Origin: Squalus acanthias
Taxonomy: Eukaryota
Direction: 5' to 3'
NCBI GenBank assembly: GCA_030390025.1
Contig: CM059441.1
Location: 24,738,001-24,802,000 of the forward strand
DNA: 64,000 nt
Each line of letters opens with the position of its first letter. Positions within the stretch are counted from its first letter, which is position 1. Below the pieces are notes generated by a model. That model searched no databases. It saw only the letters and a program-made list of their open reading frames with translations, and had not been told where the DNA came from. Made by a program: the position numbers and the translations under genes. This document shows positions 3,566 to 58,655 of this stretch, in pieces.

Positions 3566-3569
3566 CATT

Positions 3570-4823
3570 GGACTGGATTTTGTGAATGGAGGCGAGTTGG
3601 AGGTGGGACTGCTGCTTGTCATAGAAACATAGAATCTAGGAGCAGGAGTAGGCCATTCAGCCCGTCGAGCCTGCTCCGCCATTCAATACGATCATGGCTG
3701 ATCATCCAAATCCAGTACCCTGTCCCTGCTTTAATCCCCACAGTACACATATCCCACCCTACCCCCGTAACCCCACGTATTTAATTCCCCCTAACATATC
3801 CCATCCTATCCCCATAACCCCACATATTTAATCCCCCCTAACACTAAGGGTCAATTTATCATAGCCAAATCAACCTAACCCACACATTTTTGGACTGTGG
3901 GAGGAAACCGGAGCACCCGGAGGAAACCCACGCAGACACGGGGAGAATGTGCAAACTCCACACAGACAGTCACCCGAGGTCAGATTCGAACCCGGGTCTC
4001 TGGCGCTGTGAGGCACCAGTGCTAACCACTATGCCACCGTGTTGTCGTGTCAATGTCCCGCCTCCATCCTCGCCTGACCATTCAGAGGGATTTTCCCCTG
4101 ATTGAGCTTATTAAGCCCGCCCTGCGGGCTCAGCAGGCCAATTAGGGAAGAAGTCACTGACAGATCACGTCAACGTCAGACGTGCTATCTGTCAAGGCTT
4201 CTTGAAAGAAGAAATGACAGCGTTTGACAGCTCTGTGAAACTGTCAAACACTGACATTCTCTTTAGTTTGATGAGTCTTTGAGGTGAGGACTCATCAAAC
4301 ATTGCAAATTTGTAAATTTCTGATGGATCGGAGGGTCCATCAGCCATTACCTGAAATTGACAAGCAGGATGTCGGCTCTCCCGATCCTCCGCGGCTAAAG
4401 GCTATGGAAGGAAAACAAGGTAAGTGAACACTTTTTTAAACTTATCACTCACCTTGCATACTTACCACTCCACACTTGCGCCCATCACTCACCTCTACAC
4501 CTTACTTCCAGGTGCCTCCGACCGCCGCAGACCTCCTCCACGTCTCCTCCAACCCGGCGGGGTTCTCCGAGGTCGGGAAGCCTTCACCTGTGAAGGTAAA
4601 ATGGCACTAATCCTTTTTCCTGCCTGTTAACAGGCAGTTAAAAGGATTAAATGCCTTTCCCGCCTCCAGGAGACGGGACCCGAAGCTGCATATCTTCCCG
4701 CCTCCTGGCAAGTGGGCACGGAGGCGGGATGGGGGCGGGTTTGCCATCCGCCCCCAATTTCTCCAAGTTTACCAGCAGTCCCGCCTCCATGCCCGCCTCC
4801 TCGGGGCTTGGAAAATCCAGCCC
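3570..4823. mobile_element. MITE (PIF/Harbinger-like), interrupted by V-SINE
   Basis: Termini GGACTGGATTTT / AAAATCCAGCCC; homologous in reverse orientation to 42790-43623. Confidence 0.7.
3621..4040 (-). mobile_element. HE1-like V-SINE (tRNA head, CR1 tail)
   Basis: A/B boxes, V-domain gtgtctgcgtgggtttcctccgggtgctccgg, CR1-like 3' tail; near-identical to 41828-42246. Confidence 0.85.
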
Positions 4824-4844
4824 TATGACTCGAAATGTATCTAT

Positions 4845-19937: not shown

Positions 19938-20295
19938 GAAAGACCTGCCTTTATATTACGCCTTTCACACACTCAGGATGTCCCAAAGCCAATGAAGCAC
20001 TTTTGAAGTGTAGTCACTGTTGTAATGTAGGAAACGCAGCAGCCAATTTGCGCACAGCAAGCTCCCACAAACAGCAATATGATAATGACCAGATAATCTG
20101 TTTTTTGGTGATGTTGGTTGAGTGATAAATATCAGCCAGGACACCGGGGAGAACTCCCCTGCTCCTCTTCGAAATAGTGGCCATGGGATCTTTTACGTCC
20201 ACCTGAGAGAGCAGACGGGGCCTCGGTTTAACGTCTCATCCGAAAAGACGGCACCTCCGACAGTGCAGCACTCCCTCAGCACTGCACTGGGAGTA
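19938..20295 (-). mobile_element. DeuSINE lacking head
   Basis: Core and tail of the family. Confidence 0.8.
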
Positions 20296-36449: not shown

Positions 36450-37135
36450 ACCGACAGTGCAGCGCTCCCTCAGTACTGCCCCTCCGACAGCGCAGCGCTC
36501 CCTCAGTACTGCCCCTCCGACAGAGCAGCGCTCCCTCAGTACTGATCCTCCGACAGTGCAGCACTCCCTCAGTACTGACCTTCTGACAGTGCAGCACTCC
36601 CTCAGTACTGACCCTCTGACAGTGCAGCACTCCCTCAGTACTGATCCTCCGACAGCGCAGCACTCCCTCAGTACTGACCCTCTGACAGTGCAGCACTCCC
36701 TCAGTACTGATCCCCCGACAGTGCAGCACTCCCTCAGTACTGACCCTCTGACAGTGCAGCACTCCCTCAGCACTGCCCCAGCAACAGTGCAGCGCTCCTC
36801 AGTACTGACCCTCTGACAGTGCAGCACTCCCTCAGTACTGATCCTCCGACAGTGCAGCTCTCCCTCAGTACTGACCCTCCGACAGTGCAGCTCTCCCTCA
36901 GTACTGACCCTCCGACAGTGCAGCTCTCCCTCAGTACTGACCCTCCGACAGTGCAGTGCTCCTTCAGTACTGGCCCCCCCCCGCGCCCCCCGACAGTGCA
37001 GTGCTCCCTCAGTACTGCCCCCCTCCGACAGTGCGGCGCTCCCTCAGTACTGCCTCTCCGACAGTGCAGCGCTCCCTCAGTACTGCACCGCCCCCCCCCC
37101 CCACCGACTGTGCAACACTCCGTCAGTGCTGAGCA
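36450..37135. repeat. Minisatellite, 33 bp unit derived from DeuSINE core
   Basis: CCGACAGTGCAGCACTCCCTCAGTACTGACCCT, ~20 copies, continuing into the SINE head on the minus strand. Confidence 0.93.
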
Positions 37136-41745: not shown

Positions 41746-41827
41746 AAAACCTACCTCTTTGACCAAGCTTTTGGTCACCTGCCCTAATTTATCCTTATGT
41801 GGCTCGGTGTCAAATTTTTTGTCTTAA

Positions 41828-42246
41828 ACACGGTGGCATAGTGGTTAGCACTGGTGCCTCACAGCGCCAGGGTCCCGGGTTCGAATCTGACCTCGGGTGA
41901 CTGTCTGTGGAGTTTGCACATTCTCCCCGTGTCTGCGTGGGTTTCCTCCGGGTGCTCCGGTTTCCTCCCACAGTCCAAAAATGTGCGGGTTAGGTTGATT
42001 TGGCTATGATAAATTGACCCTTAGTGTTAGGGGGGGATTAAATATGTGGGGTTATGGGGATAGGATGGGATATGTTAGGGGGAATTAAATACGTGGGGTT
42101 ACGGGGGTAGGGTGGGATATGTGTACTGTGGGGATTAAAGCAGGGACAGGGTACTGGATTTGGATGATCAGCCATGATCGTATTGAATGGTGGAGCAGGC
42201 TCGACGGGCCGAATGGCCTACTCCTGCTCCTAGATTCTATGTTTCT
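41828..42246 (+). mobile_element. HE1-like V-SINE
   Basis: TGGCATAGTGG A box, GGTTCGAATC B box, V-domain and CR1 tail; inserted in an L2 tail. Confidence 0.85.
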
Positions 42247-42789
42247 AAAATACTCCTGTGCAGCGCCTTGGGACGTTTTACTACATTAAAGGCGCTATAT
42301 AAATACAAGTTGTTGTTGTTGTTGTTGATTGTAGGTTCCTGAAGCTGCTGTACCTGAATGAAGGTTCAATGAGTTAAAATTTAACTTTTATACATAAATA
42401 TCCTGGTGTGGATTTGATGCTTTCGTTGGGTCCCGATTGTTTATGCTGATTTCTGCCCATTTTAAGTTCGGTGTACCCTAATGACGTCGGGAGGATACTT
42501 GAGTGTTACTTGATGTCGGCAAATTGGCGGCATTTTCAGGTCTAATTTCCAGATTGTGGCCAAGGAGGAAACTCCAAGCTTGGACGTCTTGTCTTAAACC
42601 TCTCCCCCTGCCTCTTCTTTCCCCACCTTCCGAAGCCTCCTTAAAACCTGCCTCTTCGATCACGGTGCTGGTCACCTCCCTTCCTTCCTCTCCGACTCAT
42701 CTTCATGGGTCTGTACTCTGCTTCTCCACAGGTCAGGCCAGTGGAAGGCCAACTGTATCTCTACAGCGGACTGCACTTATAAAGATATA

Positions 42790-43623
42790 GGGGGCGATCT
42801 TGCCAGCCCTGGGGAGGCAGGACTGCCGGGAAAATGGCAGAATCTGGGGGCAGGTACCCATCCTACCCCCAACCCGCCTCCGTGCCATCTTCCCAGGAGG
42901 CGGGTACCCAACCCGCGCTGGGTCCCGCCTCCTAGAGGCAGGAAGGGGATTACAGCCACTTAACTGCCTGTTAACAGGTAGTTAACAGCCAGTTAAGAGG
43001 ATTATCCTCATTTTTCCATCAGAGGTGTGGGCTTCCTGACGTCGGGAAACCCCGCCAGGGTCAGCGAGGCGAGCAGTGGGTCCGCAGGGGTGAGAGGGGT
43101 CCAAAAGTGCGCTGTGGAGGTGAGAGATGGGTGCAAGTCTGGAGAAGTAAGTATGTGAGGTGAGTGAAAAGTGTTAGAAAAAGTTTCCTTACCTTTGTTT
43201 CTTCCTGCAGGCTTCAATCGTTGGGGATCCAGAGGCTTCGGCATCTCCGCAGCAGAGATGACAGAATGGCTGCTGCATTCTCCGATGCAACAGCCATCTG
43301 CTTTCTGCTCAGAAAATAGGTTTGGTGAGTCTTCAGTACAAGGACTCACCAAACAACAGAGAATGTCAGTGTTTGACAGCTTCTCAAAGCTGTCAAACGA
43401 TGATAATTCATCTGTCAAAAATTTTTGACAGATGAAACGTCATACGCTGATGTTCTCTGTAACCAGCTTCCCCTTAATTGGCCTGCTAAGCCCGCTGGGC
43501 GGGCTTAACAAGGTCAATCAAGGGAAAATAGCGTGGGTTGGCCACAAGTCGATGGAGGCGGGACTGAAACTGAACAAGCAGCAGTCCCGCCTCCAATACG
43601 CCCCCATTGGCAAAATCACCCCC
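42790..43623. mobile_element. MITE (PIF/Harbinger-like)
   Basis: TIRs GGGGGCGATCTTGCC / GGCAAAATCACCCCC flanked by ATA on both sides. Confidence 0.75.
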
Positions 43624-43729
43624 ATACAGTGGGATTCAGAGATTTTAATCGACAATTAAGGTGCAAGTCACGTGTGTGACTTTTAATCAGTGCAAATTAT
43701 GCCCAGAACCTGTCCACCCTTTACTCTAG

Positions 43730-48193: not shown

Positions 48194-48598
48194 TCACAGG
48201 ATTGTTATTAAACAAAACTTGACACCGAGTCACATATGGAAATATTAGGACAGGCTTGGCCAAAGGGGTAGGTTTTAAGGAGCGTCTTAAAGGAGGAGAG
48301 AGAGGCAGAGAGGTTTAGGGAGGGAATTCCAGAGCGTAGGGCCCAGGCAGCTGAAGGCACGGCCGCCAATGGTGGAGCGATGGAAATCAGGGATGAGCAA
48401 GAGGCCAGAATTGGAGGAGCGCAGAGATCTCGAAGGGTTGTAGGGAAAAGGTTACAGAGATAGGGAGGGGCGAGGTCATGGAGAGATTTGAAAACAAGGA
48501 TGAGAATTTTAAAATCGAGGTGTTGCTGGACCGGGAGCCAGTGTAGGTCAGCGAGTACAGAGTGATGGGTGAACGGGACTTGGTGTGAGTTAGGATAC
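48194..48598 (-). mobile_element. L2 3' fragment
   Basis: ILTHTKSRSPIT motif on minus strand. Confidence 0.8.
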
Positions 48599-49889: not shown

Positions 49890-50755
49890 ATACCTTCTCT
49901 ACATTCTACTGAAACCGTACACCTTCTCTACGTTCTAATGAGAGACTGTACACCTTCTCTACATTCTACTGAAACCCGTATACACCTCTCTACATAACCG
50001 TACACCTTATCTACATTCTATGAGGACTGTACACCTTCTCTACATTCTACTGAGAGACTGTACACCTTCTCTACATTCTACTGAAACCGTACACCTTCTC
50101 TACATTCTACTGAGAGACTGTACACCTTCTCTACATTCTACTGAAACCGTACACCTTCTCTACATTCTATTGAGAGACTGTACACCTTCTCTACGTTCTA
50201 TTGAGAGACTGTACACCTTCTCTACATTCTACTGAGAGACTGTACACCTTCTCTACATTCTACTGAGAGACTGTACACCTTCTCTACATTCTACTGAGAG
50301 ACTGTACACCTTCTCTACATTCTACTGAGAGACTGTACACCTTCTCTACATTCTACTGAGAGACTGTACACCTTCTCTACATTCTACTGAGAGACTGTAC
50401 ACCTTCTCTACATTCTACTGAGAGACTGTACACCTTCTCTACGTTCTATTGAGAGACTGTACACCTTCTCTACGTTCTATTGAGAGACTGTACACCTTCT
50501 CTACATTCTACTGAAACCGTACACCTTCTCTACATTCTACTGAGAGACTGTACACCTTCTCTACGTTCTACTGAGAGACTGTACACCTTCTCTACGTTCT
50601 ACTGAGAGACTGTACACCTTCTCTACGTTCTACTGAGAGACTGTACACCTTCTCTACGTACTACTGTGAGACTGTACACCTTCTCTACGTTCTACTGTGA
50701 GACTGTACACCTTCTCTACGTTCTACTGAGAGACGGTACACCTTCTCTACGTTCT
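49890..50755. repeat. Minisatellite, 31 bp unit with 29 bp variant
   Basis: TGAGAGACTGTACACCTTCTCTACATTCTAC and TGAAACCGTACACCTTCTCTACATTCTAC. Confidence 0.95.
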
Positions 50756-51120
50756 AGGCTGACACTCCAGTGCTGAGGGAGCGCTGCAATGTCGGAGGTG
50801 CCGTCTTTCAGGAAAGACGTTAAACCGAGGCCCCGTCTGCTCTCTCAGGTGGACGTAAAAGATCCCATGGGCACTATTTCGAGGAAGAGCAGGGGAGTTC
50901 TCTCCGATGTCCTGGGGCCAATATTTATCCCTCAACCAACATCACTAAAACAGATTATCTGGTCATTATCACATTGCTGTTTGTGGGAGCTTGCTGTGCA
51001 CAAAATTGGCTGCCGCGTTTCCTACATTACAACAGTGACCACACTTCAAAAAGTACTTCATTGGCTGTAAAGCGCTTTGGGATGTCCTGAGATCGTGAAA
51101 GGTGCTGTAGAAATATAAAC
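50753..51120 (+). mobile_element. DeuSINE at end of minisatellite
   Basis: Core and tail; head missing. Confidence 0.8.
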
Positions 51121-57877: not shown

Positions 57878-58377
57878 GACTTATGACAAATATGGGGCCT
57901 GAGGGGAGTGTTTGCATGTGGAGTTGTCTGTATGTAATGTATGAAGGTATTTGAAAGATACTAATTGATTTGATTAAGAAGAAAGATTTTGTGTTTGCCA
58001 GGCAGGCTGCCTGCCATCTCAGCCTGATGAGATTTGGCCATTTGGGGCCTGCTGTATGCTAATAGAGTTTAGACTGATAAATAGCCTCCACTAGCCAAAC
58101 CATTTGTCCAGACCTCGTCTACAAGTAACAACAGGGCCCAGCTGGGGTTAATATCTCCAGGGCCAGTGTCAAAATCACATTAAAGGTGCCCATTCCCCTG
58201 TGTACAAGGACAGTGCGGAGAGAAGATAAACTGAGCAGGTCCGAGGTGTTTAGGCATTTTTGAGCCTCTTTGTCGAAACCTGCGCTATTGCCACTGGTCC
58301 CTGAAGCACAGGGCAACCATGGGTACTGCCGTATCACGCTTATGTTACTGGTCTAGTAATGCCTGGATTACTAATGT

Positions 58378-58655
58378 TTACAGAGGGTCCCTGGGTGTAT
58401 GTTAATATTTAGAGAGGGTCCCTGGGTGTATGTTAATATTTACAGAGGGTCCCTTGGTGTATGTTAATATTTACAGAGGGTCCCTTGGTGTATGTTAATA
58501 ATTACAGAGGGTCCCTGGGTGTATGTTAATATTTACAGAGGGTCCCTTGGTGTATGTTAATATTTACAGAGGGTCCCTGGGTGTATGTTAATATTTACAG
58601 AGGGTCCCTGGGTGTATGTTAATATTTACAGAGGGTCCCTGGGTGTATGTTAATA
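58378..58655. repeat. Minisatellite, 31 bp unit, ~9 copies
   Basis: TTTACAGAGGGTCCCTGGGTGTATGTTAATA repeated. Confidence 0.95.

Follow-up and report, generated by a model that had tools for sequence, protein, structure and literature searches.

Two copies of a Harbinger-type element in the analyzed window

The analyzed window, a stretch of 64,000 nucleotides from Squalus acanthias, contains two diverged copies of one MITE family, which lie in opposite orientation and share 72% identity over 759 columns (Table 1). Copy A is interrupted by a nested insert, a putative SINE with a tRNA-like head; a free twin of this insert lies 38 kb away on the other strand. The window also holds minisatellites with a 31–33-bp period (324–603, 36451–37085, 49892–50756, and 58372–58655).

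Table 1. Features of the two MITE copies, in window coordinates.
Feature	Positions	Strand	Remarks
Copy B, full-length Harbinger-type MITE	42790..43623	-	Subfamily F17, 834 bp; 5' (Myb-side) end at 43623
Copy B TIR, Myb side	43612..43623	-	12 bp; same TIR type on the Myb + transposase elements L343–L345
Copy B TIR, transposase side	42790..42801	+	TIR type as on L343–L345
Copy B TSD	42787..42789	.	3 bp, ATA; partner 43624–43626; from sequence and family statistics
CCAAT-box block, palindromic	43475..43520	-	Putative part of the former Myb promoter
Stem 1, copy B	43407..43436	.	30-bp palindrome, perfect; joined across a 24-bp deletion that removed the TATA-like TTAAAG region
Stem 2, copy B	43364..43398	.	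Inverted TGACAG pair with invariant flank; former Myb 5' UTR, immediately ahead of the start-codon position
Stem 3, copy B	43320..43354	.	Remodelled Myb codons (~residues 3–16); perfected independently in two clades, from opposite arms
Stem 4, copy B	43266..43297	.	Remodelled from Myb coding DNA; two or three Watson-Crick types at several pairs
5' splice-donor-like AAGGTAAG	43188..43196	-	In 9 of 12 MITE consensuses; F4–F6 without it
Palindrome, transposase-side end of copy B	42961..42996	.	From the sequence
Copy A	3570..4823	+	Subfamily F10; in a TATGACTC-repeat tail; unequal flanking 3-mers, ATT left and TAT right
Nested SINE-like insert in copy A	3622..4041	-	~420 bp; 98% identical to 41827–42247
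Copy A stems	4192..4343		Stem 1 (remnant) 4192–4205; stem 2, 4222–4249; stem 3, 4266–4300; stem 4, 4320–4343

The initial annotation of this DNA had described four adjacent stems in both copies, with compensatory changes between them. All of the arm sequences that it listed were found where it had placed them, and the G-C to C-G swap in stem 4 was as described. In stem 3 the A-T to G-C swap was real, but the different loop reported there came partly from reading copy B on the opposite strand. Copy B has all four stems, whereas for copy A the description was overstated, its stem 1 being a remnant of 5–7 bp; the same state extends across the clade of copy A, and in the F10 consensus 4 of the 12 central pairs of stem 1 are mismatched and one more is G.T. 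Element positions 170–420 gave DNA-fold z-scores of −8.3 in copy B and −8.1 in copy A (30 dinucleotide shuffles), as against a mean of −0.24 and a minimum of −3.1 for 25 random 250-mers of the window. Beyond the four stems, the first 150 and last 230 element bases also fold (z from −5.6 to −7.1), and the only non-folding part is a pyrimidine-rich, intron-derived linker of ~130 bases. The hairpins and paired changes of the family are real, and the folding is far above chance.

Copy number and assignment of the family

The element is a non-coding PIF/Harbinger MITE of ~840 bp with a 3-bp TSD, and its TIRs, TSD, and high copy number bear out the earlier view of a non-autonomous DNA transposon family. 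Short TIRs, a 3-bp TSD, an extended target preference, and autonomous relatives with Myb and DDE proteins are given for PIF/Harbinger in the available text of PMC2836001. In the 3.7-Gb genome, the repeats of which resemble those of cartilaginous fishes, the exact stem-2 pattern occurred at 20,233 sites and its reversed control at 1, so that the family has at least 20,233 copies; the TIR pattern, which includes sister families, occurred at 48,512 + 48,744 sites, compared with 1,805 + 1,930 for the control. The 189 non-redundant copies collected were a non-random sample, taken from the best BLAST hits (F17, F10, and F3), from the stem-2 pattern, and from the TIR pattern on contig C1; 181 of them fell into 14 clusters of at least three members, and 8 were left out. 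All 12 MITE consensuses are ~820 to 870 bp long. On contig C1 the TIR motif also recurs at 565187, 569434, and 573681, a fixed spacing of 4,247 bp that may reflect a tandem array.

A perfect 3-bp TSD was present in 61 of the 114 MITE copies for which both ends and flanks were scored, while shuffled pairs would give 7.3; in 28 of the 114, the flanking 3-mers agreed at no more than one position. The same copies revealed an extended palindromic target, GA(C/G)(A/T)C-WWW-G(A/T)(G/C)TC, reaching 8 bases out (G at −8 in 70, A at −7 in 90, C at −4 in 86, G at +4 in 81, T at +7 in 91, and C at +8 in 64 of 114).

Coding elements with the same terminal inverted repeat

Elements L343–L345, 4.2–4.3 kb in length, have the same 12-bp TIR and contain a transposase gene and, convergent with it, a Myb gene; in a profile comparison, each end of the MITE matched an end of these elements. 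The transposase piece of elements of this type belongs to PF13359 (DDE_Tnp_4, E 2e-31), and same-TIR elements encode PF13873 (Myb_DNA-bind_5), starting at the equivalent of the MITE 5' end. A search by TIR had been recommended for finding the autonomous partner. The L343–L345 copies are frameshifted, and a direct parent with stem 2 and an intact transposase was not found among the same-TIR elements, the L343-type Myb ends being without stem 2 and TGACAG clusters. The L343-type elements are best regarded as relatives of the MITE and not as its proven parent, and their Myb/transposase pair would mobilize the MITE in trans.

The transposase-start pattern of the same-TIR elements was found at 1,981 sites, and the DDE core was present in 3 of 30 sampled. 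The other 27 were Myb-only derivatives, which resemble helper elements; such derivatives, with fused N- and C-termini of the transposase and a deleted DDE core, are abundant (L136, L137, L113, L118, L153, and L261–L290). A first look for PF13359 genome-wide gave 63,886 candidates. The top matches (30 of 150 listed loci; L061–L090) are a young Harbinger family, mostly 93–100% identical, with open transposase frames of ~391 codons; this family was rejected as partner because its termini differ and it does not match the MITE profile. Also rejected were the L056-type transposase family, which has other TIRs, and the transposase at L171, which is part of an adjacent element.

Descent of the stems from a Myb gene

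Subfamilies F3 and F1 are ~1.7-kb derivatives in which the Myb exon is still readable, and one copy of this type has an ATG directly after the invariant CACTGACA flank of stem 2. Subfamilies F4–F6 are 73–75% identical to F3/F1 over ~245 bases; their translation still gives recognizable Myb residues, and the TTAAAG TATA-like box is kept. The nine other subfamilies have lost 24 bases at this box, and stem 1 closed over the gap. Comparison of the 14 subfamily consensuses showed a graded series from F3/F1 through F4–F6 to the nine TATA-deleted subfamilies. By this series, stem 2 is former Myb 5' UTR, and stems 3 and 4 are former codons. The proposal that the stems are foreign cargo is therefore not supported; they descend from the Myb gene of the element itself.

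A consensus built from the Myb ends of six coding elements was unstructured (z of −0.4 and −1.0), whereas the transposase-end consensus of 20 copies already folds (z of −4.7). Since the latter folds, the absence of folding in single autonomous copies was set aside as partly an effect of decay. In the older F3/F1 derivative, the still readable former Myb exon has its own, different perfect hairpins (z from −5 to −8), next to an unstructured left end.

Covariation between subfamilies

Among the 12 MITE consensuses, 17 of 69 core pairs showed at least two Watson-Crick types, compared with 5–7 in six slid registers, a count biased upward by hand alignment of stem 3 in four subfamilies and by derivation of the structure from the same sequences. 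Fifteen of the 17 are transversion pairs, which lie beyond the reach of CpG decay. When the 3' columns were permuted among the 26 doubly variable pairs, a mean of 7.4 and a maximum of 16 were obtained in 5000 permutations. When each subfamily was represented by one genuine copy and the alignment was left unedited, an automated count gave 12 of 58 pairs as covarying, a value reached by 2 of 500 shuffles, with 4–8 in slid registers. Two clades are out of register in the MAFFT alignment, so that RNAalifold did not recover stem 3 from it.

Parsimony placed ~6 Watson-Crick to Watson-Crick and ~4 mismatch to Watson-Crick double changes on single branches; the slid registers gave 0–1.3 and 1–2, respectively. 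The double changes cluster at the adjacent stem 3 pairs 153–159. At pair 158/186, two clades resolved an ancestral A.A mismatch differently, one to T-A and the other to A-T; in the F10–F17 clade it was fixed from the 3' arm, in the F7–F9/F15 clade from the 5' arm. The initial annotation had seen compensatory changes between two copies; across subfamilies, true double changes exceed the controls. Its broader statement that the structure is maintained found support for pairing across subfamilies, but not for the four stems as a single structure, stem 1 having decayed in one clade.

Sequence conservation and stem 2

Runs of invariant sequence in the 12 consensuses comprise the TIR core, the CCCGCC motifs, the palindrome at the CCAAT box, the motif ACGTCA, and 10 + 17 bases in stem 2 and the adjoining flank. 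The most conserved 50-base bin is the CCAAT block, with 78% invariant columns, and positions 301–450, which hold stems 3 and 4, are the least conserved, with 14–16%. All 12 consensuses have the inverted TGACAG pair of stem 2 unchanged; this invariance is inflated by the picking of most copies outside F17/F10/F3 through the stem-2 pattern, seven subfamilies also having members found independently of it. The idea that all four stems are maintained as sequence-specific sites found no support for stems 3 and 4, given the low conservation of their part of the element. Because stem 2 is invariant while the region of stems 3 and 4 is the least conserved, stem 2 is the sole candidate for a sequence-specific function. 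It is likely a selected cis element that aids mobilization, and it may bind a protein or mark the transcription start.

Origin of the hairpins

We consider it probable, though well short of certain, that the hairpins are strand-symmetric DNA palindromes formed from the Myb 5' UTR and first codons by template switching in master copies, and that only stem 2 is likely under selection. Once the coding constraint on Myb was lost, quasi-palindromes would have been free to be perfected, one arm being copied onto the other by template switching during DNA synthesis in master copies that were still transposing; selection on mobility would likely keep the promoter block and stem 2. Elements that move by cut-and-paste are copied anew during gap repair, and the switching may have occurred in repair synthesis of the excision gap or in transcription-linked repair. 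The perfection of stem 3 on two occasions, from opposite arms and in multi-base blocks, points to template switching in transposing master copies. Hairpin-templated conversion, which the initial annotation had listed as an alternative to its own proposal, gives the best fit to stems 1, 3, and 4. Template switching produces multi-base compensatory changes according to the available text of PMC8794818, and transcription-linked cases are described in that of PMC3820800.

In eight subfamilies with at least 8 copies, private non-CpG changes were equally frequent in stems 1, 3, and 4 (106/10,400) and in unpaired positions (97/8,826; p 0.62). Inserted copies are therefore unconstrained, and the paired changes date from the master lineages. 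An apparently lower mutation rate in the stems (2.9% vs. 5.0%) vanished once variants shared between copies were removed, and many single-copy “compensatory” doubles proved to be CpG pairs decaying on both arms. Resident copies contained 5 private doubles, 4 of them compensatory, compared with ~2.8 doubles expected, a comparison of low power; at this power they gave no clear sign of ongoing conversion, which counts against template switching.

The main rival, which we regard as unlikely, is that all stems are a selected DNA structure that raises transposition whatever its sequence, through nucleosome exclusion, bending, cruciform formation, or single-strand folding in repair. Such selection would agree with the retention of pairing where sequence is least conserved, with the narrow length range of all 12 consensuses, and with the gain in the MITEs of palindromes that are absent from the coding Myb end; in addition, internal regions tune the mobility of mPing without shared sequence (PMC9921582, available text). 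However, pair losses (55) exceed single-step gains (32) in the parsimony reconstruction, stem 1 decayed in the successful F10–F12 clade, and 7 of 13 same-TIR sister MITEs are without a long internal inverted repeat. In the remaining 6 of 13 (L114, L121, L134, L141, L145, and L147), which form a second MITE lineage with this TIR, an inverted duplication of 45–110 bp starts at ~position 159, immediately after the Myb promoter block, and its loop is often (AG)n. This arrangement, together with the palindromic exon but non-palindromic left end of F3, hints at a position-specific benefit or a transcription-linked process. In master copies, the traces of mutation and those of selection are alike, and our tests separate them only partly.

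In another same-TIR MITE (L138:291-6138), the internal (AG)n loop has grown to ~5 kb.

Strand symmetry and transcription

It is quite improbable that the stems are a selected structured RNA whose transcription starts at the Myb promoter that the element has kept, such as a capped hairpin RNA or a small-RNA precursor. The promoter motifs are conserved, and both raw RNA runs (X16 and X17) covered the MITE family well. In X17, first mates located downstream of stem 2 were strongly one-sided (up to 1986 vs. 146), leaning the other way upstream, and at positions 588–620 of an F7 copy the strand ratio was 739:29; the bias was weaker in X16. If the library follows the usual convention, this indicates that some copies are transcribed in the sense direction from the former Myb promoter. 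RNA depth follows sequence conservation, a few loci may dominate it, and only 12 and 50 reads in the two runs were at least 99% like copy B. The strand-biased RNA extends over stems 3 and 4 and beyond, and stem 2, being invariant, gives no G-U information.

The asymmetry between G-U and A-C pairs that had been suggested as a sign of RNA was absent: 21 G.T and 15 A.C states were counted among the unique non-Watson-Crick states (p 0.41). Nor did the sense strand have a folding advantage, since z ranged from −3.6 to −13.0 for sense and from −6.5 to −15.5 for antisense, and antisense was the more stable in 8 of 12 consensuses. The untranscribed ends of the element fold equally well. A search of Rfam gave 5 matches with E of 0.26–0.94, all far under the gathering score (best 21.9 bits vs. 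84), and neither consistent transcript ends nor a splice joint were seen in the X16 and X17 reads over the family. Stems of 10–17 bp are also short for Drosha substrates. On present evidence, the MITE stems are probably not a structured RNA.

Least probable of all is an array of symmetric TALE-type sites for the element or the host (TGACAG being a putative TALE homeodomain-type motif): the MITE consensuses have 4–6 TGACAG/CTGTCA hexamers each, mostly at positions 160–380, compared with 0–1 among the initial 450 bases in each of three coding elements, and stem 2 is invariant, but at stems 3 and 4 the motif occurs in few subfamilies and the sequence changes freely, the pair arose by palindrome completion at the origin of the MITE (F3 has CTACAG), and the neutral decay of inserted copies argues against host-level constraint.

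Mismatched target-site duplications and comparison with known systems

The agreement of the flanking 3-mers depends on the clade. In F7–F9, 24 of 27 TSDs were perfect and none had 0–1 matches, whereas in F10–F17 only 30 of 74 were perfect and 25 of 74 had 0–1 matches (p 1.2e-5 for the clade difference). When only pattern-picked copies were counted, perfect TSDs amounted to 23/26 and 15/29, respectively. Copy A of the window is an example of a mismatch (3567–3569 vs. 4824–4826). Gap-free empty homologues were available for 17 mismatched copies; the 3-mer that most of the empty sites carry equalled the left one in 7 cases, the right one in 2, and neither in 8. Differences from the empty sites lay mostly in the three TSD positions (5–8 of 17 each, vs. 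0–5 elsewhere); matched copies, too, differed from the empty site at the third TSD position in 7 of 23 cases. Ectopic recombination is disfavoured as the cause, the flanks joining gap-free in homologous empty sites.

Donor-overhang transfer by piggyBac at non-canonical sites was reportedly observed by Li and coworkers in 2013. That system is alike in having target bases at one end and foreign bases of the same length at the other, with otherwise contiguous flanks; the present case differs in superfamily, involves 3 bases, is clade-dependent, and is known from genomic patterns alone. The mismatched TSDs suggest a similar carry-over of the donor 3-base overhang. The mPing model has staggered cutting at the TSD (PMC4561436, available text); with such cutting, an element would carry donor bases, visible only where targets are degenerate.

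The element belongs to a known superfamily and shows unusual internal evolution. In the available descriptions, mPing/Ping/Pong of rice, Harbinger3N_DR of zebrafish, and Tourist-like MITEs have similarly short TIRs, a 3-bp TSD, and an extended target, and PIF/Harbinger non-autonomous elements are likewise deletion-derived, non-coding, and of high copy number, with Myb + DDE autonomous relatives. Unlike in these MITEs, the internal DNA here is a remodelled Myb 5' UTR and exon with covarying palindromes in at least 12 subfamilies, the target 3-mer is degenerate (WWW), and one clade often has non-matching flanking 3-mers. No description of the family or of mismatched Harbinger TSDs was found in the literature searched, the scope of which lay outside Repbase/Dfam and most subscription journals. 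Template-switch mutations, as far as the available parts of PMC8794818 and PMC3820800 go, show the same multi-base arm completion on one branch with either arm as template; those reports concern RNA genes and yeast reporters, whereas here the changes are in the lineage of a DNA transposon that shows no sign of selection at the RNA level.

The family provides a clean natural series from a coding exon to covarying hairpins in tens of thousands of copies, and it offers a system in which template-switch mutation can be weighed against selection within transposons. It also warns that covariation alone is no proof of RNA structure. If the hairpins were selected for mobility, they would represent RNA-like covariation in a DNA parasite. 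We regard as doubtful, with an outside chance of being correct, the combined possibility that a dead Myb exon was rebuilt into sequence-free hairpins selected for mobility and that the Harbinger transposase carries over three donor bases in the manner of piggyBac. Evidence on the cutting and joining by Harbinger transposases has so far come from yeast genetics, judging by the available text of PMC4561436; if the mismatched TSDs do reflect overhang carry-over, they would add genomic evidence on both steps.
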